From positions 992,001 to 1,056,000 of the forward strand of contig CAXXWS020000003.1 of the NCBI GenBank assembly GCA_963665325.3: a DNA stretch of 64,000 nt. Direction: 5' to 3'. Shown in pieces: positions 9,457-35,768 of the stretch; position 1 is the first letter of the stretch; every line of letters starts with the position of its first letter. The DNA is from Alphaproteobacteria bacterium. GTDB lineage: Bacteria > Pseudomonadota > Alphaproteobacteria > Bin95. The translations under genes and the position numbers were made by a program. The notes below the pieces were generated by a model. The model searched no databases. It saw nothing but the letters and a program-made list of their open reading frames with translations, and had not been told where the DNA came from.

Positions 9457-10236
9457 ATGATCGGGAAGCGTGCGCGAGGCTTCTACTGCACGCGGGAAGA
9501 GCGGTCTGCGATCGGGGCGCGGGCAGCCGCGGCGGGGCTGTCCGTCTCCCGCCTGGTGCTCGACCTCGTGCATGACGACATTGCCGACGGCCCCGATTCG
9601 GGGCTCACGGCGGAGGAGATGGTGGAACTGCTCGACGGCCTCCGGGTGCTTGCGGCGTATGTGCGGGGCCTGCGCGACAGGACGGCGGAGGACGGCGCTC
9701 CCCGGACCGTTCCCGGAAGCGACGGGAGGCATCATGGGGATGTCGGGGATCGCGCCTGCGGAACGCCGGCGGACCGGGTGCGCCTGTCGGTCTCGGCGAC
9801 GGACGGAGAGTGGGCGGCTGTCCATGAGCGGGCGCGGCAGGGCGGTCTGTCTATCTCGCGCTATCTCGGTGGCCTCCTGTTGCCGGACGCCGCTGTCGAG
9901 GGTCCGCTGCCGGCGCTCAGCGGCGTGGAGCAGCGCGAAGTGCTGGAGGCGGTGCGGCACATGCGTTTGCTGCTTTCCGAAGCGGAAGCGCCCGGCGCCG
10001 GTTCGACCGGAATGCCGGACCGGTTTTCGGCTTCGCTCGATGCCGGAGGGTCTGTGCTCGACGAAGACGGCCGGGAGGAAAGGTCCGGCGCTCGACCTTC
10101 CGCCAGCCCTGACGGCGGGCATGTCGAAACAGGCGATGCCGGACCCCGTTCGCCGCCGCTCGCAGCCGAGAGTTCGAAACCGGCGGAAACGGCCGAGACC
10201 GATCCGGACCCGTCCGACCAGGGCGCCCTGTTCTGA
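9457..10236 (+). CDS. Protein with two tandem RHH-like modules
   Basis: GFYCTREERSAIGARAAAAGLSVSRLV and LSVSATDGEWAAVHERARQGGLSISRYL; low-complexity tail. Confidence 0.65.
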   Translation: MIGKRARGFYCTREERSAIGARAAAAGLSVSRLVLDLVHDDIADGPDSGLTAEEMVELLDGLRVLAAYVRGLRDRTAEDGAPRTVPGSDGRHHGDVGDRACGTPADRVRLSVSATDGEWAAVHERARQGGLSISRYLGGLLLPDAAVEGPLPALSGVEQREVLEAVRHMRLLLSEAEAPGAGSTGMPDRFSASLDAGGSVLDEDGREERSGARPSASPDGGHVETGDAGPRSPPLAAESSKPAETAETDPDPSDQGALF

Positions 10237-11664: not shown

Positions 11665-11679
11665 GCCGGGGACCGCAAG

Positions 11680-14160: not shown

Positions 14161-14248
14161 CCCCCCGAAACCGGCTCGGGCAGAATGCCATTCCGTCGCC
14201 GGTCTGTCTGCCTGGCCGGATGGCGGCATCCGGCCGTCGCGGGCCGGA

Positions 14249-17200: not shown

Positions 17201-18781
17201 CATCGACATCTCGTCGGCGACCAGGATGGTACCCTCGAAGCGTTTCCTGAGTTCCGCCAGCGCCCGGTCGTCGAGCAGGTTGTCGCCGGCATCGCGGTAG
17301 CGGGCGAGGAACCATTGCAGCGTGCGCACCGGGATGCCGGCCTCCCGGCCCAGCACGCCCGCCGCCACCGCCGACGGCGCCAGGCCGAACACGCGCCGGT
17401 CGCCCGCAAGCGCCGCCGCCTCCCTCAGCATGGTGGTCTTGCCCGTGCCGGCATAGCCCTGCACGCCCACCACGAGATCGTCATGCAGCAGAATGGTGCG
17501 CACCGCCTCTTTCTGCCCGTCGGTCAGCACCGATGCCGCCAGCCGGGCCTCGACCGGCTCTGCTTCGGTCAACGGTCCGCCTGCGCCCGCGCCTTCCCCG
17601 AGCAGCGCCAGCATGCCGCGCTCCGTCCTGACCGTCCGGTCGGTGACGAAGGCGCGCCCGCTCACCCCCCGGCGCACCGTCTCCAGCAGATGGCCGTCGC
17701 GCAGGAGCTGCGCGATCGCCTCGTCCACGTCCCGGATGGTGTAGCGGCCCGGCGAGTGGGCGAGGCAGCGCGTGACAAGGTCGTTGGCCGCAAACACCGA
17801 GCGGCGTTCCTCCAGATGCGCTGCGGCCCGGCAGGCGATCTCCAGCATCGAGAGCACGGGCGGCGGCTGCGTCCGCCGCTTGCGCGGCCTCGCGAGACCG
17901 AGTTCCTTCGCCCGCCCCCGCCAGAGCTCCTCCAGCGCCGCCCGGCCCGGCTCGTTCTTGCGCGCCCTGGTCGCCAGCGCCGCCTGCTGCGCCCGCGCCG
18001 CATTGTAGTTCCAGCCCTTCTCGCGGATATATTTCAGGATCGCCCGGCGCCGCTTGGAGAACACGAACACCTCGGCGCGCCTGTAGCCCGCAATCTCGAA
18101 GCTCGGCACCCCGCCCGCCATCGAGGGCGAGAGCGTATAGCCCCGCTCCATCAGCCGCCGCGCCAGCTCGTTGCGGTAAAAGGCTCCGATCGTCATCTCG
18201 GCCGACTTCAGCCGGCCCGTGTCGAGGCTCCGCCAGCGCCCCTCCGCGTCCTGCGTCATGTTGGCGACAACGGCATGCGTGTGCAGCTGCGGGTCCAGGT
18301 CCCGGCTCGCTATGTGCCGGAACGTCGCCGCCACCATCGAGGGCGAAGGCGCGCGCCGCATGCGCCTGAACTCCCGGTCCCACACGCGCGTCTCCAGCAG
18401 CCGCGCCTCGATGAAATCGAGTGTCGCCTTCACCGCCCCGTCATGCGCGCGCACCACGTCGTCACGGCCCCACAGCAGGCCCTCCAGCGAAACGGATTTC
18501 GGCGCCGAGAAGGTGATGTCGTGGCCGGGCTCGTGCTCCGTCTCGCCCTCGCGCGTCCGCCGCCCGAGGCGGATGTCCGTCTTCGGGACCTTCCCTTCCA
18601 GGATCGAGCGAAACCGTTTCGCGTCGACGCGGCCCTTCAGGCCCAGCGCCGCCGCGCCCGTCCCGTGCCAGCGGCTCGCCCGACGGTGCTCGGGATCGTT
18701 GCGCGCATAGTAGCCGCCCTCGCGCTCGAAATAGCGAACCGAGGCGGCCGCCGACCCCAGCCTGTTGACCTTGGCTACCAT
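14249..18781 (-). CDS. MOBF (TrwC/TraI-like) relaxase-helicase
   Basis: N-terminal YF...YY, DITFSAPKSVS, H..SRDLDPQLHTH; helicase GYAGTGKT, DEMSM, TVHAAQG, YVQISRAR. Confidence 0.95.
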   Translation of the reverse strand: MVAKVNRLGSAAASVRYFEREGGYYARNDPEHRRASRWHGTGAAALGLKGRVDAKRFRSILEGKVPKTDIRLGRRTREGETEHEPGHDITFSAPKSVSLEGLLWGRDDVVRAHDGAVKATLDFIEARLLETRVWDREFRRMRRAPSPSMVAATFRHIASRDLDPQLHTHAVVANMTQDAEGRWRSLDTGRLKSAEMTIGAFYRNELARRLMERGYTLSPSMAGGVPSFEIAGYRRAEVFVFSKRRRAILKYIREKGWNYNAARAQQAALATRARKNEPGRAALEELWRGRAKELGLARPRKRRTQPPPVLSMLEIACRAAAHLEERRSVFAANDLVTRCLAHSPGRYTIRDVDEAIAQLLRDGHLLETVRRGVSGRAFVTDRTVRTERGMLALLGEGAGAGGPLTEAEPVEARLAASVLTDGQKEAVRTILLHDDLVVGVQGYAGTGKTTMLREAAALAGDRRVFGLAPSAVAAGVLGREAGIPVRTLQWFLARYRDAGDNLLDDRALAELRKRFEGTILVADEMSMVSTAQAHALMKIAAKLGVGRLVLVGDRKQLRAVEAGQPFRQLQEAGMATALMDDIRRQRNPVLKGAVVHTAAGEPRRALDLLGENVVELPADELAETAARLWLELSPEERRETLLLAPTHELRRGIVEEVREGLEVEGVLHGRVLEIETLAKLRMTRAETGDIRNWSEGDVAVFHRDIYPFRIRAGDACTVTGFEGDRAVLEHPDGRTRRIRPAGEIRYRLDLHETQTISIRAGDCIRWTRNDRARGLDNGATAEILSIGPRKLRLLTEDGRELEWRHDDPQLRHILHAWASTVHAAQGMTRDRVIAVADAGHGHLGGLQSFYVQISRARDNAVVLTDDRESLAAALEADSGERLTALEALGEDIALPEEETAVRAPLRVPAKQPLAPVLKPEAQEETVRAEMADALAPAQDAERRFEAWRASKARHDGEAAEAGVFPALHAGHDGLLAELWTLAEVEDAAPETRAAVEAALADMDAGRVSACLQELRQRLEARGTLLPGAERSRTVDRPGYAEWRRELESAATAARAVLADDGPPALPGDDGRKELKTMLSRADLRLSSDDELFRARTADARVRDWHGRWTKAMERVDEPGGAEEPDRLAGLARPIMDDPDLGNLNRRHVEIRLADWKARGEAETAGAAWLAAWNGDGEEERAERSEDTLGKGRSLSADPAMPPALRQDLLDALRAHDGVEAERAEREARRNRAREAATAARREADDIAFRLRTGNWTREADEMNGLLASGERLTGSRDLSGTERRRLEEALGRERERRATALLQAVRTLDPADPWPHALLSRAEAVARDPKLGEEHRTRLDTAVDNARKRAAAHDDFEKWRLDWDAFRGPVEAKGLVAFADRGCGPLVERARKLSRNPHIGAAAKKELDGNVHDHDIAWPLAVRRYGELLAQWKEIREEAKTRRIGRFDIIAGANIIEDMRELATSLHLSQTQKQTFLNIAAERDAHIERLRRHRQQERTLSRDIDQGRSM

Positions 18782-18852
18782 GTGCTTCTACCGGAACCCG
18801 GCATACCCGATCGCCGGGGCCGGCGCTACCGCGAAGCAGGGGGAAGGGGTCC

Positions 18853-19467
18853 ATGACGGAACGCGACGAGGACAGGCGGATCGAGGAAGAACTCCAGCGC
18901 CGCGAGCGGCCCGCCGGGCAGCCGCAGGCCCCGGAACCCGCCAGGACGCCGGCAGCGCCGGGGCGGCAGGCGGGGACCGGGGGCAGCCCCGCGCCGCAAC
19001 CGCCCGATGTCGAGGCCCTGTTCCTCAGGCTGGAAGCCCAGCTCGACGAGATGGAGGGCCGTGTGGCCGCCGGTATCGATGCCGTGGCGGAACAGGTCGC
19101 CCCGGTGCCGGGCGCGGCGGCGGACCTCGCCGAATGGGTCCGGCGCGCGACGGCCAGGGGCGAGGCCGTCGACCGCCTGACGCCCCTGCTGGAGGAATCC
19201 GTCGACCGCGAGAACCGCCTCCACCGCCCCGCCCGAAGGCGCGCCAGGGCGGCGGGGTTCGTCCTGGCGCTCGCGCTCACGGCCGCAGTCGTCCTGTTCG
19301 TCCAGTGGCGCTTCGCCGTCATCGAGACCGCCGACCCCACGGACGGATGGCGCGGCCTTCTCTGGGAACGCTACGGAGCCGAACTGCGCGGCTGCGTCCT
19401 CCGCGCCGAACAGCAGGGCAAGGCCATGCTCTGCCAGGTCTTCGACCCCGAGCCCGCCCTACCGTAG
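18853..19467 (+). CDS. Hypothetical coiled-coil protein with one membrane segment, divergent from the relaxase
   Basis: RBS-like GGAAGGGG; one hydrophobic segment (GFVLALALTAAVVLFV); C-terminal Cys pair. Confidence 0.6.
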   Translation: MTERDEDRRIEEELQRRERPAGQPQAPEPARTPAAPGRQAGTGGSPAPQPPDVEALFLRLEAQLDEMEGRVAAGIDAVAEQVAPVPGAAADLAEWVRRATARGEAVDRLTPLLEESVDRENRLHRPARRRARAAGFVLALALTAAVVLFVQWRFAVIETADPTDGWRGLLWERYGAELRGCVLRAEQQGKAMLCQVFDPEPALP

Positions 19468-20385
19468 CGCCCCACGATCCGGATGCGGCCGCGGAACCGG
19501 CGGCAACGGCGCGGTCCCGGCATAGCGGCCCTCCCGGTAAAGCCGGCCCTCCGCCGGCCCCTCCGGGTGACGAATGACCGTCACGCCGTCGAGCGCGCCG
19601 TCCTCGTACATCGCCTCCACCCGCCGCCCGTCCGGCCACGCGATCCGCCACAGCCCGTGCCGCCTGTCCTCGCGGTAGATGCCCGTCTCCGAATAGCCGT
19701 CCGGCCAGCGATGCGCCCATCGTCCGACCTGCTTTCCGTTGACCTGCCGGCCCTCGTCGACCCGCCCGCCGGCGTAGATATGCTTCCAGCGGCCGGTCGC
19801 CTTGCCGTGAACGAACGCGCCGTCGATCCGCGCGCCGCTGCGGTAATCGAAAACCCACACTCCATGCTTCATGCCCTTGCGGAACTCGCCGCGGCTTACA
19901 TCCCCGTCCGGCTTTTCGACCGTCCAGATCCCGACCGTCTCGCCCTGCTCGTAGCGCCCGCTCAACCGCTCGCCGTTCGGGATCGCGATGGTCCAGAAAC
20001 CCTGCTCCCCGCCAGGCCCGAACGACCCCTCCCGGCGTGTGCCGTCGACCTGCTCCAGCACCCACCCTCCCTGGCGCAGCCCGGCCGTGAACCGTCCCGT
20101 CTGCCGGTTGCCCTCCCGGTCCTCCAGAGCGCCCTCGCCCTCGGCCAGACCCTCCCGGCATGCCCCCGACCAGGTGAACGGCGCCTTGCCCCAGCGCGCG
20201 AACCGGCTCCGGAAATGGCAACCCGCGATGTTCTCCACCGGCGTCAGGCAGCCGGCCCCCGCAGGCGCTCCCGCATCTGTGCAGAGCGGCAAAGGCTCCG
20301 CGGCGCGCGCCATGCCGATCCAGACAAAAAGCGCCGAAACCGCCAGCAGCGCCGGAACGGCAGTTCGGAGGCTTCCATGGATCAT
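19459..20385 (-). CDS. Secreted MORN-repeat protein
   Basis: Signal peptide from MIHGSL; about nine ~23-aa repeats of type G.F..G...G.W......G. Confidence 0.8.
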   Translation of the reverse strand: MIHGSLRTAVPALLAVSALFVWIGMARAAEPLPLCTDAGAPAGAGCLTPVENIAGCHFRSRFARWGKAPFTWSGACREGLAEGEGALEDREGNRQTGRFTAGLRQGGWVLEQVDGTRREGSFGPGGEQGFWTIAIPNGERLSGRYEQGETVGIWTVEKPDGDVSRGEFRKGMKHGVWVFDYRSGARIDGAFVHGKATGRWKHIYAGGRVDEGRQVNGKQVGRWAHRWPDGYSETGIYREDRRHGLWRIAWPDGRRVEAMYEDGALDGVTVIRHPEGPAEGRLYREGRYAGTAPLPPVPRPHPDRGALR

Positions 20386-20837
20386 CGGGGCAAGGTTGCG
20401 TTCGGGCGCGGCGCTATGGTTCGGGACGACAGCGTAGCGGGGCCGGGCGACCCATGCGAGCGCCCGCTCGGCATGGCGCGCAGGCCGGAACCGGACAGGC
20501 ATGCGCCGTTTCCGGCCGTCGCCAGGCGGACAATGCACAAGAGAGGCAAACCCGGCGAGTTGCGTTGAGCGTCGGTTCGAACCAGCTCGCGCTCCCGGTT
20601 CACCACTCGGCCAGCTTTGAAGGGAGGCTCGACGGCTCGCTCTCAGTGAGTATCGAGCACAATCGGGCCGACTAGCGTGCTCGACGCTCGTTGAGATCGG
20701 ACGCGGCAAGTTAAGGGTATAAGCCCCCTAGATTAGGTGCTGACCGGCGTCGAAGCGGCGCGCAACGCAATACCATTTCCGCATGGAGGTGGGGCGCCCG
20801 CACCGTGCGCATCGTGCATACAGCTACAATATCTTGG

Positions 20838-21761
20838 TCATGATTCGTCCCCTCGGTCGACCCCATTGGCGAAATACGCGAGGGCCTTCTGGAGATGGTC
20901 AGCCATTGCGTTTCCGGCTACGGTAGGTACGCGTTCTGCCGGAGCGACCAAGCAGAGTCGCAGCTCGGACATCCGCTTTCCTTCCAAGGGAACTGCGATC
21001 AGGCTCCCGTCTGCCAATGCTTCGGAGAACTCCAGCTTTGTAGAAAATGCAATCCCGGCACCTTGCAGTAGAAGGCGCTTGACCATCGCCCGGGTGTTGG
21101 AGACCGCTGCTGGCTTGTGCACCCTCCTGAATGCTTCCATCTCATTACCGACAACCAGCTCCATCGTGTCGACAGGGTCCTGGTAGATCAGACGGTGGGT
21201 GCCGCACTCCTCAAGACTGACGGAGGCGCGCGACGCAAGTTCGTGGTCCGGCCTCATAACGGCGCACATCGGACAATCGATGCGCTTGAGTACGGTGATG
21301 CCACGGCGGCAGACCGGGGAGAACGTCAAGCCGAGATCCGCGGTGCCCTGGCAGACAGAGTGCATGGCTTCAATCGAATCGCAGGCGGACACGCGGACCT
21401 GAGCCTTCGGATGCAGAGCAACGAATTGCGCTATCGCTTCGGGCAGAAACTGCACAGTGGGGTTGTCCAAGGTCGCAATACTCACGCCGCCGCTCACGAT
21501 GCCGCGCAGGTTGTCAATATCGCCGCGCAGCCGCGCGAAGTCGTGCAGCGTATCCCGTGCGTGGCGCAGCACCAACTTGCCTGCCTCGGTCAGCCGCATG
21601 CCCTCCGGGTGCCGTTCGAACAACAGCACGCCGAACTGATCCTCCAGCTTCAGGATTTGGCGGTTCACAGCCGACGCCGAAATATGAACCCTTTCCGACG
21701 CACGGCGGATCGACCCGTCCTCGGCCACCGCTTCGAAATAACGCAACACTGCTGCATGCAT
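20838..21761 (-). CDS. LysR-family transcriptional regulator
   Basis: LRYFEAVAEDGSIRRASERVHISASAVNRQILKLE helix-turn-helix. Confidence 0.95.
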   Translation of the reverse strand: MHAAVLRYFEAVAEDGSIRRASERVHISASAVNRQILKLEDQFGVLLFERHPEGMRLTEAGKLVLRHARDTLHDFARLRGDIDNLRGIVSGGVSIATLDNPTVQFLPEAIAQFVALHPKAQVRVSACDSIEAMHSVCQGTADLGLTFSPVCRRGITVLKRIDCPMCAVMRPDHELASRASVSLEECGTHRLIYQDPVDTMELVVGNEMEAFRRVHKPAAVSNTRAMVKRLLLQGAGIAFSTKLEFSEALADGSLIAVPLEGKRMSELRLCLVAPAERVPTVAGNAMADHLQKALAYFANGVDRGDES

Positions 21762-21767
21762 CCTGCG

Positions 21768-22397
21768 TCAGCCCCCGTTGTCTTTGCTTGCAATGCCCGC
21801 AACTCTTTCAACCAACCAGTGGTATTCTTGAGGGCTGCGATTCAGCAAATGTCTAGTGGCTGCAATGCGATCTGTCAATCCCTTCTCCTGAGACATTTTC
21901 ACCCGACCCTCAATATCGTCGACGACAATTGTCACGCGACGGATCAAAGTTGACAACTGCCGAACTCGATTTTCAGTCTTGTCAAAAGTCCATCCCGCTA
22001 TGGCAGGCTCCAGTTGCCGTGTGAGGTGTTCGATATCCTCGAGAATTTCTGACCCTGGATTCTCGATCCTTGCGTGTCCCGTTACATGAACAGAAATATA
22101 ATTCCAGGTTGGCAACTGCCGCGTCGCGTACACAGTAGGGGAGACGTATGCATTGGGGCCAGAAAACACGACATAAACCGGACTCCCCTCCAATAACTCA
22201 ATTTGAGGATTAGATTGGTCCATATGTCCGAGGAGTTTCACCACTCCCGAACATTCACTGCTTACAATAAGCGGAATATGGCTAGCGGCGAACTCCTTGC
22301 CACTCCAAGTGACAATGAGGCCCAAGGGAAAGGCTTGTATGATCGACACCAAACAGTCCAAGTCTTCTTCTCGGTACACGTCGTAATGATAAGCCAC
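21768..22397 (-). CDS. PaiB-family protein (FMN-binding split barrel), KtzT/PzbB piperazate-synthase-like
   Basis: SHIP, GHMDQSNPQ, GPNAYVSPTVY, PTWNY..VH, KMSQEK. The family call is firm; the synthase function is inferred. Confidence 0.8.
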   Translation of the reverse strand: MAYHYDVYREEDLDCLVSIIQAFPLGLIVTWSGKEFAASHIPLIVSSECSGVVKLLGHMDQSNPQIELLEGSPVYVVFSGPNAYVSPTVYATRQLPTWNYISVHVTGHARIENPGSEILEDIEHLTRQLEPAIAGWTFDKTENRVRQLSTLIRRVTIVVDDIEGRVKMSQEKGLTDRIAATRHLLNRSPQEYHWLVERVAGIASKDNGG

Positions 22398-22585
22398 CTA
22401 CTTCCACCCTCTTCGTTGCTACGTTTTCCGACTAATCCGGCTCTCATGCTCAGACCTCAATTCTCAACTAACCTCGCCATTCCTTGACCATAATGTTAGT
22501 CCTCCTTCGAATCCAATAGATCGCAGCGGCCCTCGTCTCCCAGCCGATCCATAATACAGTTCAGCCCGGGCTTGACACTTTTCTT

Positions 22586-23605
22586 CTAGTCAGTGCAATA
22601 TCCCATAACCTCCTTATACAACCAATCTGGAACACACACACCATTTTCCCGAGTATAGTTTCTTACCGCATAACGTCTATCGGAGGGCAAGCGCGTCCCC
22701 TCTTCTTCCAGGATCTTCTCAAACAGCGACTCCGCATGCTGGAGATTGACAGAACCATCGTACGAATCTCCGAAGTGGGCCGGGTCCATCGCAATAATCA
22801 ATTCACCTCCTTCCGACGGCCCGCCATCGCTGTCATCGTCCTGGGCCGACTCGAAGCCGAACTTGCCTCCGCTGAGCCCAACCGCCAATAGCTCCACCAT
22901 CATTGCAATAGCGGCGCCCTTGTAGCCGCCGAAGGGCAACTGCGCACCTTCGAGGGCGGCGCCCGGGTCCGTCGTCGGCCGGCCATTGGCGTCAATGGCC
23001 CAGCCCTCCGGAACTCGTGCCCCATCGCGTTCCCGAATTTGAATTTCACCGCGCGCCGCGACGCTGGAAGACTGGTCGAAGATCATTGGCGCCTTGTCAG
23101 GCCGCGGCCACCCGAACGCCATGGGATTTGTCCCAAAAACTTTGTTGGTACCTCCCGCTGCGGCGACGAAGGAGCGAGAGTTCACGAACGCAAATGCTAC
23201 CAACCCCTCGCAAACTAGCGTATCGATATCGTACCACAGCACTCCGGACTGATATGCATTCGTGATCGGCATTGCCGCGACCCCTTGAGATCGTGCCTTG
23301 GCAGCCAAGAGCGGCCGCCCGACTACCATCGCCGCAGCTGCAAAGCCACGATGGGCGTCCACCTGGACAACGCCGGGAGACTTGTCATGCAATGTCGGCA
23401 CGGCTTTCCCGTTTGCGCGCCCACTTTTGACACAGGCGCAGTAGCCTGGCATCCTGAAAAGACCGTGCGTCTTGCAGCCATCCTGCTCCGCCAAGGTCAT
23501 TACATCGGCGAGCACGATGGCGTTCTCCTCGGAGAGGCCGGATTTGGTCAGTCCGCGCATGGCGATATCGCGAACCTCGTCGAGCGTCAGACTTACGCTA
23601 GTCAC
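22586..23605 (-). CDS. Ldh_2-family NAD(P)H oxidoreductase (DpkA/LhpD-like)
   Basis: DGCKTHGLFR, GTNPMAFGWP and LPFGGYKG. Confidence 0.9.
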   Translation of the reverse strand: MTSVSLTLDEVRDIAMRGLTKSGLSEENAIVLADVMTLAEQDGCKTHGLFRMPGYCACVKSGRANGKAVPTLHDKSPGVVQVDAHRGFAAAAMVVGRPLLAAKARSQGVAAMPITNAYQSGVLWYDIDTLVCEGLVAFAFVNSRSFVAAAGGTNKVFGTNPMAFGWPRPDKAPMIFDQSSSVAARGEIQIRERDGARVPEGWAIDANGRPTTDPGAALEGAQLPFGGYKGAAIAMMVELLAVGLSGGKFGFESAQDDDSDGGPSEGGELIIAMDPAHFGDSYDGSVNLQHAESLFEKILEEEGTRLPSDRRYAVRNYTRENGVCVPDWLYKEVMGYCTD

Positions 23606-23644
23606 TGCATTCTCTCCAATGGGTAGCGGGGTGCGGAATCCTGC

Positions 23645-24529
23645 CTAGCGTGGGCTAGTCTCTAATCTGCGGTTGAACGACTTGCCCGGTTTCGGTTTTG
23701 CATTTGCTGTCGGCTCGTCAATCAGATTTTGAAACTGGGAAGGCTTATAGTGGGTTGCATAGATCATGACACCGACAAAAGTAAGCCCACCTACGAGATT
23801 GCCGATCAAGGTCGGAATCTCATTCCAGAGGAGGTAATCCACCCAAGTGTAACTGCCGCCGAGCATGATACCAGAAGGGAAAAGGTACATGTTTACAATG
23901 GAGTGTTCGAAACCAAGATAGAAGAAAATTAAAATTGGCATCCACATGCCGATTACTTTTCCGGAAACGGACGTAGACATCATCGCGGCGACAACACCTG
24001 TCGAAACCATCCAGTTGCACATGATAGCCCGAACAAACAGGGTCAACATTCCCGCGTAGTCGGCGTCGGCGTATCCAAGCGTACGCATTTCCCCGATCCT
24101 ACCAATTTTCTGACCTACTGCATTCGGGTCTTTGCTGAACCCCATCGTGAATACAACTGCCATCAAGGACGCAGTTGTGAGCGCTCCAGCGAGGTTTCCG
24201 AGGAAGACCAATGTCCAATTTCGTAGTAGCTTGGGAAAGGTTACACCGGGACGACGTGCAAAGAGAGCAAGTGGCACCAACGTAAACACGCCTGTCAACA
24301 AATCATAACCCAGAAGATAGATCATACAGAACCCAACCGGGAAGAGCAGAGATCCGAGTAAGAAACTACCAGTGTCAACCGCAATCGTTATGGCAAATGC
24401 CGCAGCTAGAGCTAAAATCGCACCGGCCATATATGCTCTGATAAGGGTATCCTTGGTCGACATAAATGCCTTGGATTCACCTGCCTCGATCATTCTTGTG
24501 GCAATTTCCCGGGGCGTGACATAGGACAT
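23645..24529 (-). CDS. Formate/nitrite transporter (FNT) family channel
   Basis: LFPVG, DLLTG, GNLAG, CNWMV and GFEHSIVNM; start at MSYVTP. Confidence 0.93.
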   Translation of the reverse strand: MSYVTPREIATRMIEAGESKAFMSTKDTLIRAYMAGAILALAAAFAITIAVDTGSFLLGSLLFPVGFCMIYLLGYDLLTGVFTLVPLALFARRPGVTFPKLLRNWTLVFLGNLAGALTTASLMAVVFTMGFSKDPNAVGQKIGRIGEMRTLGYADADYAGMLTLFVRAIMCNWMVSTGVVAAMMSTSVSGKVIGMWMPILIFFYLGFEHSIVNMYLFPSGIMLGGSYTWVDYLLWNEIPTLIGNLVGGLTFVGVMIYATHYKPSQFQNLIDEPTANAKPKPGKSFNRRLETSPR

Positions 24530-24657
24530 GGGGAGTGCTTCTCCAATTAAAGCAAGGCGGCACTTGCTTCCTGTGTTCGTGGTAGCCGGCTGGCCATTGA
24601 AAGGCGGATGTTCTGAAGTTTGCGCCGGGAACCGGCATTGCTTCGCACCTCGGCAAG

Positions 24658-25896
24658 TTATCGGCGGGCTCGATAAGAAAGGTACGCTGCGCTCAATGCG
24701 AGGGCGGCCGCAGCAAGCTGGAAAGCGTGGTTGATTCCGTTTACTTGAGATACCAGGAGCGCAACTAGCACTGATGGCACCACCGGGCCGGTCAGTTGTC
24801 CGATCGCGAAAGCGGCAGTCATATAACCCAGTACCTCGGTCGCGCGTCCCCGTGCGCGCGACCGCACTTCCTGTAGCGCGACTGTGGTCGTGACCATGAA
24901 AGTGCCGCCCACGAATAGCGCGGTAATTGCGATCGAGGTTGGCGTCAGCCAGATGCTCGGCATGAGAACGCCGAGCGCCATGATGAGGTGGGTGACGGCC
25001 CACACGCGCAGGCGGTTCATCCGCTTGAGTACGCGTGCGGCTACGATAGTGGAAACTAGGGATGCCAACCCGAACAATGGCCAAGCGAGGCCGAATATTC
25101 GCGGCTCATCAACAATGTTGCGGGCAAGCGTGGGAAGGAATGTGGCTGGCAGGATATAGCCGAGCCCCATGACCCCATAGCAGACTACGAGACCTGCAGT
25201 GCTGCTACCGGGTCCAGTTGAAGCGCCTACCCCCCGGAGGGCGCCGGTGGAGGGAACCCGGGGACCTCTACTCAGCAATAGCGACGGCACGATGGCGACC
25301 GCCGCCAAGGCTCCCAGCCCGAGCCAAAGCCATTGCGTCGAGACGCCCGGGCCGGCGGCAACGACACAGTAGAGGCCTACTGTCGCAATGCCGAGGCCGG
25401 TGCCGCCATAGATCACTCCGGCGAGGTCCGAGCGTTGCGCCGACGCCAACCGATCCAACGCCCACGCGCTGGTCAGGACAAAAGCCCAAGCGCTAAAGAC
25501 ACCCGCCGCGAACCGCAAGACAAGCCATGCCGCCATATCCAGGCTGTCGGAGCCCCCCATGGCAGTTGTGACGGCAACGATAGCGGCCAGACTGCCGCGC
25601 AGCAGAATCTGCGGCTTGACGCGAACCCAGCTCACCGTTAGCGCGCCGAGCACGTAGCCGAAGTAATTGCTACCGGCCAACCATGCGCCGGCGTTCAGGT
25701 CAAGCAGGTCATCCCGGATCATGAGGGGCAACAGGGGCGTGAACGCGAATCGGCCAATACCCATCGAGACTGCGACCTCTACCATTGCAAGAAGGCAGAC
25801 GGCAGCAGCAGTACGCGTTCCCAAGCGCGTCTGTCGGATAAAATCCAGGTTTATGCGCATGTTTACTCGGCCTCGGACCAACGTTTCACACACCAC
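24658..25896 (-). CDS. YbfB/YjiJ-family MFS transporter
   Basis: MGIGRFAFTPLLPLM, SNYFGY and GLGYILPATFLP. Confidence 0.9.
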   Translation of the reverse strand: MVCETLVRGRVNMRINLDFIRQTRLGTRTAAAVCLLAMVEVAVSMGIGRFAFTPLLPLMIRDDLLDLNAGAWLAGSNYFGYVLGALTVSWVRVKPQILLRGSLAAIVAVTTAMGGSDSLDMAAWLVLRFAAGVFSAWAFVLTSAWALDRLASAQRSDLAGVIYGGTGLGIATVGLYCVVAAGPGVSTQWLWLGLGALAAVAIVPSLLLSRGPRVPSTGALRGVGASTGPGSSTAGLVVCYGVMGLGYILPATFLPTLARNIVDEPRIFGLAWPLFGLASLVSTIVAARVLKRMNRLRVWAVTHLIMALGVLMPSIWLTPTSIAITALFVGGTFMVTTTVALQEVRSRARGRATEVLGYMTAAFAIGQLTGPVVPSVLVALLVSQVNGINHAFQLAAAALALSAAYLSYRARR

Positions 25897-25917
25897 CGAT
25901 TCGGCTCTTCACGAAAT

Positions 25918-27636
25918 TCAGGCCACCCCGGCTCCTTGGTCCTTCAGGATCGTCGCGAACTTGGTGCGCAATTCGCGCTTGAGCACTTTCCCTGTGACCC
26001 CGACCGGGAAATTCTGCGGCTCCAACGCCACTTGGACGGCTGCCAGAGGCTCGAGGCCGGCCGTCGAGAGTTGCTCGTTAAAGTACGCGAGCAACCGATG
26101 TTCCGATGGAACCTCTGGGCCTTTCCGGGGACGGATGATGGCAATCGGCTTTTGTCCGAAGCCATTATGGCTCGGGACGCCGACGACGGCGCAATCGTGA
26201 ACGATGTCCCCGCAGTCGGCCAACAGCACTTCTTCGATCAGCAAGCTGTAGACCGCCTCGAACGCGCCATCTATGACATCGACTGTGCGATCCAGGTGAT
26301 AGAAGCGGCCGTCTTCGTCCCGGCGGGCCACATCCCCCGTCAACCAGTATCCGCCAAGCTCGAACCTCCCGGTCAGCTCCCGGTCGTTCCAATATCCCGG
26401 CGTAAGGCTCGGTGTCTTGAGAGCTAGCAGGCCCGGTGCTCCGACAGGCAGCTCCGCTCCGGTTTCGTCAACGACCGTGGCGTGCTCGACCACGCCGATA
26501 GGCACTCCGATACAGCGATCGTTTCGTTCGGTCTCCATCGTGAACAGCTGCCCGAACAGGGACAGCCCCAGTTCCGACGAGCCGAAGCCGTCGATGAACT
26601 GGGAACCCGGCTGCGCCGCATCGCCCGCGTCGCCCTCTGTAAGCAGCGCCGGCTTTATCAGGCCGGCCGGCCGCTGGCCCATCGTGACGAGCCGCCGGAT
26701 ATGCCCATAGTGCGCGCTGTCCCCCATGTTGATCCAGGTATGGACCGAGGCGCAGGCCTCGGCGGGCAACGGATCGGCCGACAGTTCGACAAAAGTGCGT
26801 GGGAATGACAGCACGATTGTCGGCTCGAATACCATCATGACGGGCTCGACGACCACGCGCCGCCAATCCGACATGACGACTGTCGGCAAGCCCATGAGAA
26901 CCGCCGTCATGAAGTAGCTCAGCCCGCCCGCGTGTGTATGCGGCACGAGTGACATCAAGCGGTCGTACGGCTCTGCGGGCAAACGGATTAACCGGGGCTC
27001 CTTCCCAATCCAGAACTGCTTGTGGCCGGCCATGGTGGGCTTCGGCACTCCCGTCGTGCCGGACGAGTGGACGAGTGCAACGATGTCGTCTTCCTCGTGC
27101 AACACGGGAAATGGCGATGGCAGCGCTCCCTGTTCCTGGTGCGCGTTTAACTCCGACAGTGCCGAAATGAATCGCGGCCGGTAACGCTGTCTGCTGCGAA
27201 ATGCGGCCTTGAAGCCCGTCGGGTCGTCACACACCAGCCCAACCGCGCCCACATTCTCCAGATAGCTGCACGCCGCGGCGAGAGGCATGGCATTGTTGAT
27301 CAGGCCACAGATGGCGCCCAAGGCGGAGACCGCCAGGCACTGGAGCATCGGGTCGACGCCTTCGCTGACATACACCCCGACAACGTCGCCCTTCCGGACG
27401 CCATTGGCGTGGTACCATCGGGCATACCGGTCGCGCACGGCCACGAGGTCATCGAGGCTATACCCCGTCAGGTCGACACGGCCATGAGAGTCGAATCGGT
27501 GCCTGAAAATGAACGGCACGCTACGGTTCGGATTGAGCCGGACCGCCCAATCCAGAAAGTTCCCCGTGCCGAGAGCGGGTTCCTCCACCAACTGGCGTCG
27601 AACTTCGATCGGCGCAATCGAGCTATGCTGTGCCAT
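25918..27636 (-). CDS. Stand-alone adenylate-forming (ANL) enzyme
   Basis: HSSGTTGVPK, GFGSSE, TGD and TGKVLK; no carrier or condensation domain. Confidence 0.9.
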   Translation of the reverse strand: MAQHSSIAPIEVRRQLVEEPALGTGNFLDWAVRLNPNRSVPFIFRHRFDSHGRVDLTGYSLDDLVAVRDRYARWYHANGVRKGDVVGVYVSEGVDPMLQCLAVSALGAICGLINNAMPLAAACSYLENVGAVGLVCDDPTGFKAAFRSRQRYRPRFISALSELNAHQEQGALPSPFPVLHEEDDIVALVHSSGTTGVPKPTMAGHKQFWIGKEPRLIRLPAEPYDRLMSLVPHTHAGGLSYFMTAVLMGLPTVVMSDWRRVVVEPVMMVFEPTIVLSFPRTFVELSADPLPAEACASVHTWINMGDSAHYGHIRRLVTMGQRPAGLIKPALLTEGDAGDAAQPGSQFIDGFGSSELGLSLFGQLFTMETERNDRCIGVPIGVVEHATVVDETGAELPVGAPGLLALKTPSLTPGYWNDRELTGRFELGGYWLTGDVARRDEDGRFYHLDRTVDVIDGAFEAVYSLLIEEVLLADCGDIVHDCAVVGVPSHNGFGQKPIAIIRPRKGPEVPSEHRLLAYFNEQLSTAGLEPLAAVQVALEPQNFPVGVTGKVLKRELRTKFATILKDQGAGVA

Positions 27637-27670
27637 AGCGCTCTCTCCTCTTTGGTCGGGATTGTCCGCC

Positions 27671-28948
27671 TCAGGCGGCCGGACTTAACTGTCTTCTCGA
27701 AAGCTCGCCGGTGACAGCTTCAGCAATTCGGGAAAGGCCATCCGACAGCGCCGCCTCCGTGATCGTCAGGGGCGGCATAACCTTCAGGACCTCGTCCCGC
27801 GCGCCGCATAACTCCACGATCACCCCGGCGCGATATGCGCGTTCGGCCGCCCCTTTCGCCATGCTCGGGTCGTTGGGCCACGCCAGCCCCTGCAGCATGC
27901 CCTTGCCACGGACCTCCGCATCACCGGCCTGGACCGCGACCTCCGATAACCGCGACCGGATCAGGGCGCCCTTTTGGTGCACGCTGGCTTCGAAGTCGGG
28001 ATTCCGCCAAAAACGTAACGCTTCAGCGCCGGCGACAAACGCCAGGTTGTTTCCGCGAAACGTACCATTGTGCTGCCCCGGTTCCCACACGTCCACTTCC
28101 GGCCGGATCAACAGCATCGCCATGGGCAAGCCAAAACCGCTGATCGACTTCGCCAAGCATACAATGTCGGGCTCGAGGTCAGCGCGTTCGAAGCTGAAGA
28201 ACGGTCCGGTTCGGCCGCAACCGGTCTGGATCTCGTCGACGATCAGCAACGCCCCTTGCTTTCTCGCCAACGCCTGAAGGCGCTGAAGCCAGTCAACGCT
28301 CGCCTCGTTGAGCCCTCCTTCCGCCTGCAGTGTTTCGACTATGATTGCCGCAGGCGGGTCGATCCCACTGCCCGGGTCGTCCAACAGCGTCTCGACGTAC
28401 TCCAGCGTATCCACATTGGAACCCAAATAGCCATCGAAAGGCACCCGGTCCACTGCCGCGTACGGCACTCCCCCACCGCTTCGCTTCCGTCGCGCACCGG
28501 AAACGGCAAGCGCACCCAACGTCATCCCGTGAAAACTGTTCGTAAACGCCAGAATGTTCGTTCTTGATGTAACGCGTCGAGCCAGCTTCAAAGCTGCTTC
28601 GACAGCGTTCGTACCCGTGGGGCCGGTGAACTGCATCTTGTAGTCAAGTCCACGGGGCGAAAGAACTCCATCTTGCAGTTCCTGCATGAACTCTCGTTTT
28701 GCCTCCGTGTGCAGGTCCAGCGAATGCGTTATACCGTCCGTAATCATGTAGCCGACGATTTTGCTACGTATCTGCCGATTGTTATGTCCATAATTCAAAG
28801 CGCCTGCGCCCGACAGAAAATCCAAATAGGAAGTTCCGTCGACATCGATTAGAGTATGTCCGGTCGCCTTTTGAAAGAGCGCCGGAAAATCCCGACAGTA
28901 AGACCGAACCACCGATTCAAGTTGGTCGAAGATCACCGTGCCGTCCAT
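27671..28948 (-). CDS. ectB: Diaminobutyrate-2-oxoglutarate transaminase (EctB-like)
   Basis: ESVVRSYCR, GAGALNYGHN, FTGPTGTNAVEAALK, DEIQTGCGRTG and PGQHNGTFRGNN. Confidence 0.92.
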   Translation of the reverse strand: MDGTVIFDQLESVVRSYCRDFPALFQKATGHTLIDVDGTSYLDFLSGAGALNYGHNNRQIRSKIVGYMITDGITHSLDLHTEAKREFMQELQDGVLSPRGLDYKMQFTGPTGTNAVEAALKLARRVTSRTNILAFTNSFHGMTLGALAVSGARRKRSGGGVPYAAVDRVPFDGYLGSNVDTLEYVETLLDDPGSGIDPPAAIIVETLQAEGGLNEASVDWLQRLQALARKQGALLIVDEIQTGCGRTGPFFSFERADLEPDIVCLAKSISGFGLPMAMLLIRPEVDVWEPGQHNGTFRGNNLAFVAGAEALRFWRNPDFEASVHQKGALIRSRLSEVAVQAGDAEVRGKGMLQGLAWPNDPSMAKGAAERAYRAGVIVELCGARDEVLKVMPPLTITEAALSDGLSRIAEAVTGELSRRQLSPAA

Positions 28949-29550
28949 TTGGGCCTCAGCCTCCCTTTTTTTCCCAGGTATGCTACCCAACTTTTCTGTT
29001 TGCGTAGCTGAACCATCATTTACCACTCATCCGGTCTTCGTCGAGCCACATCTTCGCGCTTCCAATCATGACCCGATGAACTTCATTCCCACAGTCTCTA
29101 GTGCGCCGTAGGCGTCTTCATCTCTACTTTCCAAGTGTGCTTATGGTCCGAAGTTGGCGTGAACGCCATAACCTTAATTGGCTCGCCCCCCTCCCTGCCG
29201 TCGACTTAATTGCGACAACCTCCGCAGAGGCTCGATGATACTCGCCCGAACAGGCGGTTCCGAGCCCATCCATCCGCGAGCCTCATCGCTGCCCTCCTCG
29301 ACCCAAGTTCGACTGGCCGTCGTGGGGAACCCGCCCAGGGGTCCGAACTATCTTGTCACGATGAACTCCCATCCCGTTGCGAAAAATGTAACGCTGTGAA
29401 GAGCGCTTTGTATTGCATTAGACCGGCCCAATGTGCTTCGATGGGCTTGGCGGGCTTCACGCAGGGGAAGCTCTGCTGTGCTGCAACATCAATTGGTGAA
29501 TGCCCGCCGGACTGCTAGTCGGCCGGCGTTGAAAACAGTGGGAGACGAAA

Positions 29551-30888
29551 TTGGAAGCTTCCTCAACACGGCCTATCTTCGATGTTGTGGGCATTGGTTT
29601 TGGACCGGCGAACATCGCGCTTGCTATTGCGCTCCAGGAGCGACGCGACCCGCTGTCGGTGTTGTTTTTGGAAAAATCCAGCGAACCCGGTTGGCAAGCC
29701 GCGATGTTGCTGGACGGTTCAGACATTCAAAACAGCGCTCTGCGCGACCTTGTCACCCCGCGCAATCCGAGAAGCCGATACTCGTTCACAAATTTCTTGT
29801 TTGAGCAGGGGCGACTATTCGAATATCTCAACCTGGGCCTCGAGTTCCCGCTGAGAAAGGAATACGCTCAGTATGTTTCATGGGTGGCTCGCCAGTTTGA
29901 CGGACAGGTTTGCTATCGAGAGGAAGTGCGGCATCTTAGTATAGCAGGCACAGGCGGATCCGCGTGCTTTTCCATAACCACAGCAGGAGGCAGGACCTTC
30001 TTAGCCCGAAGCCTAGTTGCCGCGCCCGGCCGTACGCCGCTTATTCCGGAGGTGTTTAGAGGAACGGAAGGCGAGCGAGTATTCCACTTCACGCAGTATG
30101 CTCCGATGTTGAAGAAGTTAAAGCTGGGGACGGGCGAAGGTAAGCGTGCCGGTGTCGTAGGAGGAAGTCAAAGTGCTGTGGAGATCATTCTCGACCTGGC
30201 GTCTCGGTATCCGGAGATCGAGATCGTTAATGTACAGCGAGGGTTCGGGTTTTCTCTGAAAGATACAAGCCCTTTTAGCGACCATGTGTATTTCCCGGAG
30301 CATGTTGACTATTATTTTAATGCATCACAGAAAAGCAAGGCAAGCATTGATGCCCAGTTGAGGCGCACAAATTACTCGTCTGCAGACGGAGATGTGATTC
30401 GCCAACTGTATCTCGCCATTTATGAACAGAAATTGGACGGAAGGGAGAGGATACAGGTATTGAACAATACAAAAGTTAGTGGGGTGAAGAAAGGAGAAGA
30501 CGGTCTTGTGATTCAGGTGGAGGAAATTCACCAGGGGCAACTCGCTTCGGTTGAGCTTGATTTTGCGGTACTCGCAACAGGATTCCGTAATCTTGGACCG
30601 GCGGAGAATCAAGAGTTAGTTCCGCCTTTGCTCCTGCCGGTTGAAGGCTACCTGAGCAAGAGCCCACAGGGAGTACTTGAAATATCTCGGGATTACAGGT
30701 TGCTCGCCGCGAATCCAGAAGACCCGTTGCCACCGCTGTACCTGAATGGATTGTGTGAAACAACACACGGAATGGGAGATGCAGGGTCCTTTAGTTTGTT
30801 GTCGCTTCGAAGCGAACTCATTGCCCGGTCCGTTAGTGATGCTCTGACTGATTGTTCGCTGGTAGGCTCCTCTCCTTTAGGCTCCTGA
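29551..30888 (+). CDS. Flavin-dependent amine N-hydroxylase (SidA/PvdA/KtzI family)
   Basis: GIGFGPAN, DLVTPRNPRS, GGSQSAVE, TNYS and LATGF. Confidence 0.93.
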   Translation: MEASSTRPIFDVVGIGFGPANIALAIALQERRDPLSVLFLEKSSEPGWQAAMLLDGSDIQNSALRDLVTPRNPRSRYSFTNFLFEQGRLFEYLNLGLEFPLRKEYAQYVSWVARQFDGQVCYREEVRHLSIAGTGGSACFSITTAGGRTFLARSLVAAPGRTPLIPEVFRGTEGERVFHFTQYAPMLKKLKLGTGEGKRAGVVGGSQSAVEIILDLASRYPEIEIVNVQRGFGFSLKDTSPFSDHVYFPEHVDYYFNASQKSKASIDAQLRRTNYSSADGDVIRQLYLAIYEQKLDGRERIQVLNNTKVSGVKKGEDGLVIQVEEIHQGQLASVELDFAVLATGFRNLGPAENQELVPPLLLPVEGYLSKSPQGVLEISRDYRLLAANPEDPLPPLYLNGLCETTHGMGDAGSFSLLSLRSELIARSVSDALTDCSLVGSSPLGS

Positions 30889-32192
30889 ATAACTGTCCTG
30901 GTTTTAAGGCACGAGAGCGGTAGCAGCTCGGTAGGAGGCGTAGGGGGGAGTCATCGGATCGTGTCGTCAGGGGCCGGCGATGGAACCAACAGAGCTAAGG
31001 TCGGAAGGCGGACGGGTGGCTCTGAGGGGCCCTGACAATGCGGGCGGGCTAGGTGGCCAGTTCCTGCTGGTGAGACCGCATTGGCGAGGTGGCGGTTATG
31101 ATCGGAGTGTTGCAATGAGGGAGAAGGAGTGGGCGCGATGTCAGGACAAGGGCAGGTTCTACTGGCGGCAAGCATTTGCTGTGCTCTCTCTGGCGCGTAC
31201 GTAGTCATCGCTAAAGTGGATACGAATGCAGGCTTCGTTGATAAAATGGGCGCATTAGCGGGACCTTATATCGCTGGCGGACTAGTCGGTTGGGTAACAC
31301 CCTTGGTACGGACCGAATCTGTGGACAATTCCCTACCATAGGTGACGTTGTCGTACACTTTTCCCGCCGAAGACGACGGGGCAGTGCAACAGAAGTTAGA
31401 CGGCTGTATGAATGAGGTAAATAGCCTAGGGGATTCGGTCTACGCGGTGTAGTCGAGCCGGTGGTGCCCAGGGGGCGATAGGCGGCACCGTTGTCGACAT
31501 GGAGGCGCTGTGGCAGGCCGCGCCGGATCGGCGCGTTCCTGAACGCCTATCGCATCGACCTCACCGGCGAGTCACAGCGAAAGCGCAACAAGCTGACCTC
31601 GCTCGAAGGCGGCAACAAGAAATGAGGGAGCCCCGGCCTGGCGGCCGGGGTCCAGCGGTGCCTGCGGCGCCGGACCCGGCCGCAACACCGTGCAAGCGCC
31701 CCGGCATGCCCTATGAAGGGGCTTGCCGGGGCGTAGGATACGCCTTTGCATGACAAACAGGGCTCGCTTACGCTCGCAACCGGCTGGCCTCCGGCCAGCC
31801 CCCTGAAACCACCAACGGAGACCCACAGACCCACACACCAAGACACGGGAGAGACCCAAAACCGGCGCCGCACCGGCCGTCAAATGGCCAGGAACCGCAG
31901 TCAAATAAAATAGGAATCCGCTGTCAAGTCCGCAGGAATGCGCAAGCGGCGGCCTCGACTGGCGATCCGTCGCCGCCGCGCGCGCCGAAGCGGCCTCGGG
32001 CCGAGCGCAATATCGGCCATCTGCCGGAGCATCTGGAGCGGATGGAGCAGGAGCGCATGCCGCCGATGGCGGGCAGGGGCACCCGAGCCGCCCGGCCCAT
32101 GGGAGCCGCCCTGCGGGGAGACGGAGCGGGCACCGCCGGCAGCGCGTGTCTGCCCCCGTTCTCCAACCGGCCGGGCACGATCGGGACGCCCT

Positions 32193-35299: not shown

Positions 35300-35420
35300 G
35301 GAACCTCCCTGGCCTGGGGAGGGATCGAGCCCCACGGAACGGCGCGGTTTCGTGCTATGTGCCGCCATGGCCGGGCCATCCCTTGCCGGTTTTCGTCAAA
35401 ATCAAGCTGCATAATACTGC

Positions 35421-35768
35421 TTGCCAGTCGGTCCGCTACCCGCGCATTCACGATCTCCGGCATTCGCTCGCGGCGGTCGCGGTCAACGGCGGCGAGGGCC
35501 TGCGCGTCGTCGCCGGGTTGCTCGGCCATGCCGACATCAAGACCACCTTCGGCTATGCGCACCTCGCCGAGGACACCGTGTTCGACGCGGCCAACCGGGT
35601 GTCGCGCGGCATTGCCGACATGCTCGACGGCAGGGAGGCGGGCCGATGACCGAACGCAGCCGCCTGACCGATGCGCTCGCGCTCGCGGTCTGTCCGCGCG
35701 AGCGCGAATACGCCATCCACGATACCGCCCTGCAAGGCTTCATGCTGCGCGTCCAGCCGAACGGCGCC
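35421..35768 (+). pseudogene. Remnant of a second tandem integrase pair (C-terminus of one, N-terminus of the next)
   Basis: RIHDLRHS...LLGH...YAHL ends at 35649; coupled ATG at 35646 gives MTERSRLTD...EYAIHDTALQGFMLRVQPNG, then similarity stops. Confidence 0.85.

Follow-up and report, generated by a model that had tools for sequence, protein, structure and literature searches.

An alphaproteobacterial mobilisable island carries a candidate NRPS-independent pathway for N–N bond formation from diaminobutyrate

Among described routes to nitrogen–nitrogen (N–N) bonds, the closest to the locus considered here are piperazate biosynthesis, in which a flavin omega-amino-acid N-hydroxylase is paired with a heme enzyme of family PF04299 (KtzI/KtzT, also PzbA/PzbB and PipS), triacsin biosynthesis (Tri28 and Tri17), in which two successive N–N bonds are made, from a hydroxylamine and then from nitrite activated by an ANL-superfamily enzyme, and the type Ib diazotases (AvaA6, CmaA6 and Mco01_40450). 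Parts individually known from piperazate, triacsin and diazotase systems come together, in a combination of genes of which the literature searched held no account, in an eight-gene block at positions 20838–30888 of a 64,000-nucleotide stretch of an Alphaproteobacteria bacterium genome (assembly GCA_963665325.3, contig CAXXWS020000003.1, positions 992,001–1,056,000), the whole of which is referred to below as the window. The best explanation of this block is a small-molecule pathway, independent of nonribosomal peptide synthetases (NRPS), that forms the cargo of an integrative mobilisable island.

Few enzymes make N–N bonds, and they are sought as biocatalysts, and the pyrazolidine, pyrazoline and pyrazole scaffold is frequent in drugs, with natural routes that are poorly known; according to a 2024 review, direct formation of such aromatic heterocycles has been confirmed for no enzyme. 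If the pathway proposed below is correct, a dedicated enzyme converting L-2,4-diaminobutyrate (DABA) to aza-proline would offer a direct route to this scaffold, its residues would provide a natural test of what decides between N–N formation and dehydration in the PF04299 heme family, and the known scope of ATP-dependent nitrite activation would extend, through a diazotase homologue that works on an aliphatic hydrazine with nitrite from outside, beyond the aromatic amines of actinomycetes.

The block comprises the following features.

20838–21761, minus strand: LysR-family regulator (PF00126 and PF03466), last gene of the minus-strand operon
21768–22397, minus strand: homologue of PF04299 ('PaiB family') heme enzymes, 209 aa (PF04299, E 2.8e-36)
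22586–23605, minus strand: Ldh_2 family protein, DpkA-like (PF02615, E 1e-89)
23645 to about 24529, minus strand: FNT-family channel (PF01226, E 2.4e-64)
24658–25896, minus strand: MFS_4 (YbfB-type) transporter (PF06779, E 7.6e-66)
25918–27636, minus strand: ANL-superfamily enzyme (top NCBIfam match, the AvaA6 diazotase model)
27671–29026, minus strand: EctB-type L-2,4-diaminobutyrate:2-oxoglutarate transaminase (TIGR02407, NF006733)
29027–29550: divergent intergenic spacer of 524 bp separating the EctB operon from the hydroxylase gene (sequence inspection)
29551–30888, plus strand (divergent): flavin N-hydroxylase of the SidA/IucD/PvdA type (PF13434, E 3e-85)

In the proposed pathway, EctB would make DABA, the divergent flavin monooxygenase would hydroxylate it at N4, and the PF04299 heme enzyme would close the N–N bond from the hydroxylamine to give pyrazolidine-3-carboxylate (5-aza-proline). 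The ANL enzyme would then activate nitrite with ATP and N-nitrosate the cyclic hydrazine, or a hydrazone (2-pyrazoline) form of it, to create three contiguous nitrogens, with the DpkA-like Ldh_2 enzyme interconverting the C=N and C–N forms of the ring, the FNT channel supplying nitrite, the MFS transporter exporting the product and the LysR protein acting as regulator. We hold this succession of N4-hydroxylation, cyclisation to a five-membered hydrazine, nitrite-dependent nitrosation of the hydrazine or pyrazoline and reductive setting of the C=N state tentatively, with a chance of being right that falls a little short of even; the family assignments, conserved residues and conserved neighbourhoods are what we observe, and every substrate, the order of the steps and the product are what we infer.

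The block was first described in a prediction made from the letters and their open reading frames (ORFs), and the ORF listing and family scans recovered all eight of its genes, in the orientations it gave. Transcription of the minus strand runs in the order EctB-like, ANL, MFS_4, FNT, Ldh_2, PF04299 and LysR. The long ORF of the FNT gene reaches 25084 and overlaps the MFS gene, a likelier start being the ATG at 24529, which has GGAG upstream; the true start of the EctB-like gene may be an internal Met near 28948, as the family match begins at residue 31. The EctB-like protein scores 594 bits on TIGR02407 (cutoff 552) and 617 bits on NF006733 (cutoff 438), and the LysR protein reached no specific equivalog in the NCBIfam scan. 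Family scans found no NRPS, carrier protein, EctA or EctC among the eight proteins, as had been predicted, and neither a GNAT protein nor an ectoine synthase, the neighbours expected of an ectoine operon, in the block. A siderophore reading was dismissed, the block being without an IucA/IucC synthetase or acyltransferase.

Compared with KtzI/KtzT, the window shares the pairing of hydroxylase and PF04299 enzyme and keeps the axial His and the Thr/Lys pair, but its precursor supply is EctB (DABA) rather than ornithine, no NRPS lies in the block, its host is proteobacterial, and its PF04299 protein lies outside the piperazate synthase (PZS) clade, with Asp, Leu and Arg replacing N68, A105 and Y155. 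The proposal resembles triacsin biosynthesis in its two successive N–N bonds, whereas the first N–N enzyme of the window would be the heme protein and not a fusion of methionyl-tRNA synthetase (MetRS) and cupin domains, the eight-gene block has an FNT channel in place of a CreD-type lyase, and no polyketide synthase (PKS) is present. Type Ib diazotases are the best family and structure matches of the ANL enzyme, with conserved nitrite-site His, Phe and Lys; the known ones, however, diazotise aromatic amines in actinomycetes beside aspartate-to-nitrite genes, whereas the block has no aromatic-amine pathway and its enzyme scores below the AvaA6 cutoff. The actinopyridazinone pathway (Apy11, Apy9 and Apy10) also uses N4-hydroxy-L-DABA as N–N precursor, and a FAD oxidase acts afterwards; DAO-family genes follow the transaminase, hydroxylase and PF04299 genes in two related loci (L009 and G350, see below). 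The actinopyridazinone N–N bond, in contrast, is made with alanine by a MetRS/cupin hydrazine synthetase where the window has a PF04299 enzyme. The dehydratase NohD shares the fold of the window's PF04299 protein, a comparable similarity (73 bits) and an Arg at the site termed AS1, but its gene lacks a neighbouring hydroxylase gene, and at sites HP2/AS2 it has Ala/Val against Asp/Leu in the window's clade, whose members with readable context are always near a hydroxylase.

A conserved transaminase, hydroxylase and PF04299 trio

The genes for the EctB-type transaminase, the N-hydroxylase and the PF04299 protein were adjacent in all four contexts read, namely the window, locus L009 of an alphaproteobacterial metagenome-assembled genome (G061), genome G350 and the Mycetohabitans plasmid NC_014718.1. 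The trio is a conserved functional unit and no chance mosaic, which settles in the prediction's favour the check on gene co-occurrence in other genomes that it had suggested for itself. In L009 the identities to the window are 70% for EctB, 62% for the hydroxylase, 51% for the PF04299 protein and 59–76% for the ANL enzyme; a single stretch there holds EctB, hydroxylase, PF04299, a DAO-family oxidase, an EamA transporter, ANL and Ldh_2 genes, and five of the eight genes of the block thus recur together. In G350 (EctB 69%, hydroxylase 65%, PF04299 50–53%) CitMHS, Rieske, HpaB and EctB genes lie on one strand and hydroxylase, PF04299, MFS and DAO genes on the other, SBP and GntR genes are also carried, and ANL, Ldh_2 and FNT genes are all absent within 20 kb.

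The Mycetohabitans operon (L042, NC_014718.1 222639–231016), on a megaplasmid of Mycetohabitans rhizoxinica, is more distant (transaminase 39%, hydroxylase 50%, PF04299 35%) and comprises TauE, HpaB, Rieske, DABA transaminase, N-hydroxylase, PF04299, ZapE and tautomerase genes with a divergent LysR gene; identity to the G350 counterparts is 63% for HpaB and 62% for Rieske. A translated plasmid search matched nine Mycetohabitans replicons, the eight beyond that of L042 listing a monooxygenase under the same PF04299 match. A literature search found no paper linking Mycetohabitans with N–N chemistry; because this related operon sits in a well-studied fungal endosymbiont, a product could be sought quickly there. 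ANL and Ldh_2 genes travel together in the window and L009 only, and HpaB and Rieske genes in G350 and Mycetohabitans. Since the PF04299 gene accompanies EctB and hydroxylase in four of four contexts, versus two of four for the ANL gene, we regard PF04299 as core and ANL as accessory.

The exact cluster is rare. A search of one genome per species with the ANL protein returned 11 loci, eight of them in actinomycetes at 56–63% identity, and none of 80 relatives of G061 carried the ANL gene (E 1e-40 or better). Members of the PF04299 clade were present in two of the 401 genomes of G061's family, these being G061 itself and G350, whereas 400 other genomes of the class to which the host belongs held none. 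Metagenome scanning with the hydroxylase alignment (A2) gave 19 loci, with an adjacent EctB homologue (at least 47% identity) in eight and PF04299, ANL, Ldh_2 or FNT homologues in none; the corresponding scan with a PF04299 alignment (A1) gave 26 pattern matches, none of them a relative. Neither this gene set, nor a native aza-proline pathway, nor one that joins DABA to a PF04299 enzyme was described in the literature within reach of the search, which excluded subscription journals and supplements; the original prediction likewise knew of no described cluster with these genes.

Seven of the metagenome hydroxylase loci (L014–L018, L020 and L021; for example L014:3917-11983) represent a different DABA cluster, with MFS, acyl-CoA-dehydrogenase-like, M20 peptidase, EctB (~50%), GNAT, hydroxylase (~50%) and LysE genes and no PF04299 gene, which may encode an N-acetyl-N-hydroxy-DABA (hydroxamate) pathway. 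At L013:2-3854, the nearest metagenomic hydroxylase (60%) adjoins a divergent MetRS-like fragment (tRNA-synt_1g), a neighbour typical of hydrazine synthetases, and two neighbouring ORFs without a family.

Residues and relatives of the pathway enzymes

The original prediction called the PF04299 protein a piperazate-synthase-like PaiB homologue. Among structures in the PDB it matched PaiB with 80 bits, NohD with 73 and PipS with 63, and is therefore equally distant from all three; among 5.8 billion proteins it has 13 relatives at 50–88% identity, the next being at or below 39%. As described in the accessible text of PMC12576811, to which the statements on this source here and below are confined, PF04299 enzymes carry an axial His and, in most groups, a Thr/Lys pair, and piperazate synthases differ from the dehydratase NohD at five sites. 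The window protein keeps these residues as His58, Thr97 and Lys167, which align with NohD H57, T98 and K167 and are invariant in alignment A3; being common to most PF04299 groups, they are not diagnostic of a piperazate synthase. The five separating sites read as follows.

HP1 (N-terminus): PipS MFVPSY; NohD MHVFPR; window M(A)YHYD
HP2: PipS N68; NohD A59; window Asp60
AS1: PipS Y155; NohD R144; window Arg144
AS2: PipS A105; NohD V96; window Leu95 (motif QLPTW)
AS3 (loop): PipS EQPAEV; NohD DLDAER; window EKGLTD

According to the same source, the Asn at HP2 (PipS N68) is conserved only in PZS and the Ala at AS2 (PipS A105) is required for N–N formation with N5-hydroxy-ornithine. Because the F2/P4, N68, Y155 and A105 signatures are all missing, the window protein falls outside the piperazate-synthase clade, and the predicted likeness to piperazate synthases was not borne out. 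Its neighbourhood also departs from that of a PZS, the hydroxylase being paired with EctB and no NRPS lying in the block. The 21 nearest of 63 matches, like the L009 and Mycetohabitans proteins, combine Asp at HP2 with Leu at AS2, whereas the remaining 42 carry Ala or Ser at HP2 (in the 34 of the 42 where the motif is readable) and mostly Val at AS2. Asp/Leu is a third residue state at two positions tied by mutagenesis to N–N formation versus dehydration. All four members of the Asp/Leu clade with readable context have a hydroxylase and a DABA transaminase nearby. The clade might already appear as an unnamed cluster in the sequence similarity network supplements (S4 and S15) of PMC12576811.

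KtzT and PAI2 turn N4-hydroxy-DABA into 5-aza-proline in vitro (PMC11705231, here and below as far as its accessible text goes). Two activities on hydroxylamines are known in the PF04299 family, N–N cyclisation and dehydration; since dehydration of N4-hydroxy-DABA would regenerate aspartate semialdehyde, the substrate of EctB itself, cyclisation would be the productive reaction. The course from DABA through N4-hydroxy-DABA to a cyclic hydrazine, as originally predicted, remains the best-supported reading on the strength of synteny and pathway logic, but not by way of membership in the piperazate-synthase clade. Elsewhere in the host genome (G000) a second, distant PF04299 paralogue was found at 33% identity (G000:C3:1247391-1247843).

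The hydroxylase matched bacterial lysine and ornithine N-hydroxylases in the PDB with 208–245 bits, fungal ornithine entries with 144–148 and diamine hydroxylases with 90–107, and by these scores groups with the amino-acid N-hydroxylases. Its adjacency to DABA transaminases is the basis on which we propose that it is a DABA N4-hydroxylase; Apy11 of the actinopyridazinone pathway is a dedicated enzyme of this kind (PMC11705231). For the Ldh_2 protein the nearest structure is the delta1-piperideine-2-carboxylate reductase 1wtj (DpkA), with 237 bits against 134 for the next, so that the predicted likeness to DpkA stands and the protein can be classed, by similarity, as a DpkA-like cyclic ketimine reductase. 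A 2-pyrazoline-3-carboxylate would be the aza analogue of the pyrroline-2-carboxylate substrate of DpkA.

The ANL protein scored 311 bits on the AvaA6 3-aminoavenalumate diazotase model of NCBIfam, with the next family at 152, and its top PDB matches were 9xb8 (291 bits), Tri17 (9bq0/8tf7, 248) and 8ztz (244). The entries 9bq0 and 8tf7 are identified as Tri17 in PMC11705231, and the residue numbering (offset 16) indicates that 9xb8 is probably Mco01_40450 and 8ztz CmaA6. Residues that handle nitrite have been defined by mutagenesis as H224, F267 and K533 of CmaA6, equivalent to H236, F279 and K527 of Mco01_40450 (accessible text of PMC12207350 and PMC13674236), and His235, Phe278 and Lys550 of the window protein match those of both enzymes. 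These alignments mark the ANL protein as a homologue of the type Ib ATP-dependent nitrite-using diazotases and of the N-nitrosylase Tri17, with its nitrite-site residues intact. The predicted role of this enzyme, to activate or ligate a carboxylate, does not fit such matches (311 versus 152 bits) and residues, and the roles assigned to the ANL and FNT genes need revision, the candidate function being a nitrite-dependent second N–N bond. Tri17 is able to N-nitrosate hydrazones and hydrazines as well as pyrrolidines and piperidines (PMC11705231), which makes a cyclic hydrazine or hydrazone a credible substrate of the ANL enzyme.

The FNT gene, which had been given no role, fits nitrite supply by its operon context, though its sequence is not NirC-like, and the channel would supply nitrite to the ANL enzyme; the only precedent found is the 8-azaguanine cluster, which holds a nitrate/nitrite transporter homologue (PMC7674941). 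In G061 a 68%-identical FNT homologue (L033:9971-10444, G061:C12), on another contig than L009, has an MFS gene and a PP2C fragment as neighbours and covers only residues 116–261, perhaps due to assembly frameshifts.

Among the actinomycete loci with ANL homologues, the neighbours in L001, L005 and L008 include amine oxidases, a second AMP-binding enzyme and a PKS, which reveal no substrate. At L001:3069-21412 and L005:6783-11683 the homologues lie beside flavin amine oxidases and the second AMP-binding enzyme, with an MvdD-like ATP-grasp protein and a reducing PKS additionally at L001; these two loci look like uncharacterised N–N clusters.

Weighing of the proposed pathway and its alternatives

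Several observations weigh against the proposed pathway. The 311 bits of the ANL protein are far below the AvaA6 equivalog cutoff of 975, its characterised relatives all act on aromatic amines or hydrazones and come from actinomycetes, and its closest homologues, at eight actinomycete loci (L001–L008, 56–63% identity), share no other gene with the cluster. Because G350 and Mycetohabitans have no ANL gene, the nitrite step would be an add-on and not part of the core. No CreD-type (fumarase/aspartase-type) nitrite lyase was found among the eight genes, the extent of that search within the genome. The FNT protein scored 142 bits on the generic fnt model of NCBIfam, 110 on FocA and a lower 29 on NirC (cutoff 293); the L009 cluster has no FNT gene within 10 kb, the 68%-identical copy being on another contig. 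At the cyclisation step, the four sites conserved only in piperazate synthases are absent, and Leu95 at AS2 is bulkier than the Val that disfavours N–N formation in NohD.

As an alternative, the PF04299 protein would be a NohD-like hydroxylamine dehydratase or another catalyst that makes no N–N bond, and the cluster would make or degrade a different compound, nitrite or formate being a by-product released through the FNT channel. In favour of this, the PZS-specific sites are absent, Arg144 matches NohD, the Thr/Lys pair is common to most PF04299 groups (PMC12576811), the channel is more FocA-like than NirC-like, and the HpaB, Rieske, SBP and GntR genes of G350 could look catabolic. Yet with EctB a dehydratase returning aspartate semialdehyde would run in a futile cycle, Asp/Leu at both specificity sites set the clade apart from NohD and most of the family with their Ala/Val, and the ANL enzyme retains all of its nitrite-site residues; we regard this explanation as unlikely, though with an appreciable chance. 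Homoalanosine exists as a natural product, and a diazeniumdiolate of that type would result if the ANL enzyme nitrosated N4-hydroxy-DABA directly, giving 2-amino-4-(N-nitrosohydroxyamino)butyrate and leaving the PF04299 protein a side role such as clearing excess hydroxylamine. For this the block offers EctB, the N-hydroxylase and a nitrite-activating ANL homologue along with an FNT gene, and the EctB and ANL genes adjoin in the operon, but it is the PF04299 gene that is core (four of four contexts) and the ANL gene that is accessory (two of four), and Ldh_2 would be left without a role. Nor do the accessible texts of PMC11705231 and the diazotase literature report a diazotase homologue that nitrosates a hydroxylamine, and a diazeniumdiolate product is in our estimate decidedly unlikely.

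As originally predicted, aza-proline would itself be the end product or a building block, its carboxylate adenylated by the ANL enzyme for ligation. The ANL fold and the conserved A10 lysine, common to carboxylate-activating enzymes, would allow this; the best matches, however, are all nitrite-using, with a wide margin over acyl-CoA ligases (311 versus 152 bits), Phe278, the 'steric wall' for nitrite, is conserved, and no acceptor, carrier or condensation enzyme is found among the eight genes, which leaves carboxylate ligation only a slim chance. If chance alone had brought unrelated cargo genes together on a mobile element, this would agree with the heterogeneous GC content of the block (0.493–0.628) and with the rarity of the cluster, whose PF04299 clade is absent from the 400 other genomes of the class; the recurrence of five of the eight genes together in L009, and of three in G350 and Mycetohabitans, makes such an assembly very improbable.

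The pathway from DABA through a cyclic hydrazine to a nitrosated product can also be put in a bolder form, which we consider somewhat unlikely in its entirety. The island would then encode the first native aza-proline synthase, a third, Asp/Leu class of PF04299 enzyme, together with a proteobacterial homologue of the diazotases that draws on imported nitrite for an N–N–N unit (a pyrazolidine or pyrazoline carboxylate of N-nitroso or triazene type), with neither NRPS nor PKS nor an aspartate-to-nitrite pathway involved, and the sister clusters of G350 and Mycetohabitans would divert the same intermediate to oxidised, pyrazole-type products.

Island setting, composition and exchange of the block

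The predicted location of the block on a mobile element is upheld by a relaxase and integrases, a deviating composition and the failure to find the ANL gene in any of 60 relatives of the host, of which 16 share its genus, 20 its family and 24 its class (E 1e-40 or better). The features of the island outside the block, assigned by Pfam families, are these.

9457–10236, plus strand: NikA-like mobilisation gene
10327–11664, minus strand: McrC
11680–14985, minus strand: AAA_5 protein, McrB-like
14249–18781, minus strand: TrwC relaxase-helicase
35359–35649, plus strand: integrase fragment (PF00589)
36111–37286 and 37290–38408, minus strand: two tandem tyrosine integrases (PF00589)

The tandem tyrosine integrases likely mark the end of the island, outside which lie a methylmalonyl-CoA mutase gene on one side and an FtsK gene on the other. 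No flanking repeats were found within 18–33 kb and no tRNA gene was found; no type IV secretion genes were recognised among the scanned ORFs, several of which match no family. McrC and the large McrB-like ORF (10327–14985) form a restriction-type defence pair adjoining the relaxase on the island. As the AAA_5 ORF overlaps the relaxase ORF by ~740 bases, its true start must be later.

GC content is 0.52–0.64 over 21–31 kb, against 0.67–0.73 in the relaxase region upstream (15–21 kb) and 0.61–0.71 downstream. At third codon positions the cluster genes have 0.52–0.77, whereas the relaxase, integrase, McrC and measured host genes have 0.82–0.89, with the AAA_5 ORF of the island at 0.735; the block is thus less GC-rich than host genes, as predicted. 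GC is also uneven inside the cluster, being 0.495 for PF04299, 0.493 for FNT and 0.521 for the hydroxylase, compared with 0.628 for ANL, 0.62 for MFS and ~0.61–0.63 for LysR, which hints that the cluster was put together from more than one source.

No near-identical DNA was matched in the plasmid collection. Nine public sequencing runs, from three studies, contain at least half of the sampled words of the stretch, and no RNA run is listed; sponge-metagenome runs hold small shares of these words, which are no evidence of habitat. In run X4 a single contig corresponds exactly to window positions 20357–31571, with 10 differences, and in run X10 a contig of high depth passes from 18332 through 6,621 unrelated letters to 31543. 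Because the first contig matches the 11-kb block exactly and the second has other DNA in its place, the block appears to be exchangeable cargo, and the second contig suggests a related island backbone that carries different cargo in the same slot (18332–31543).

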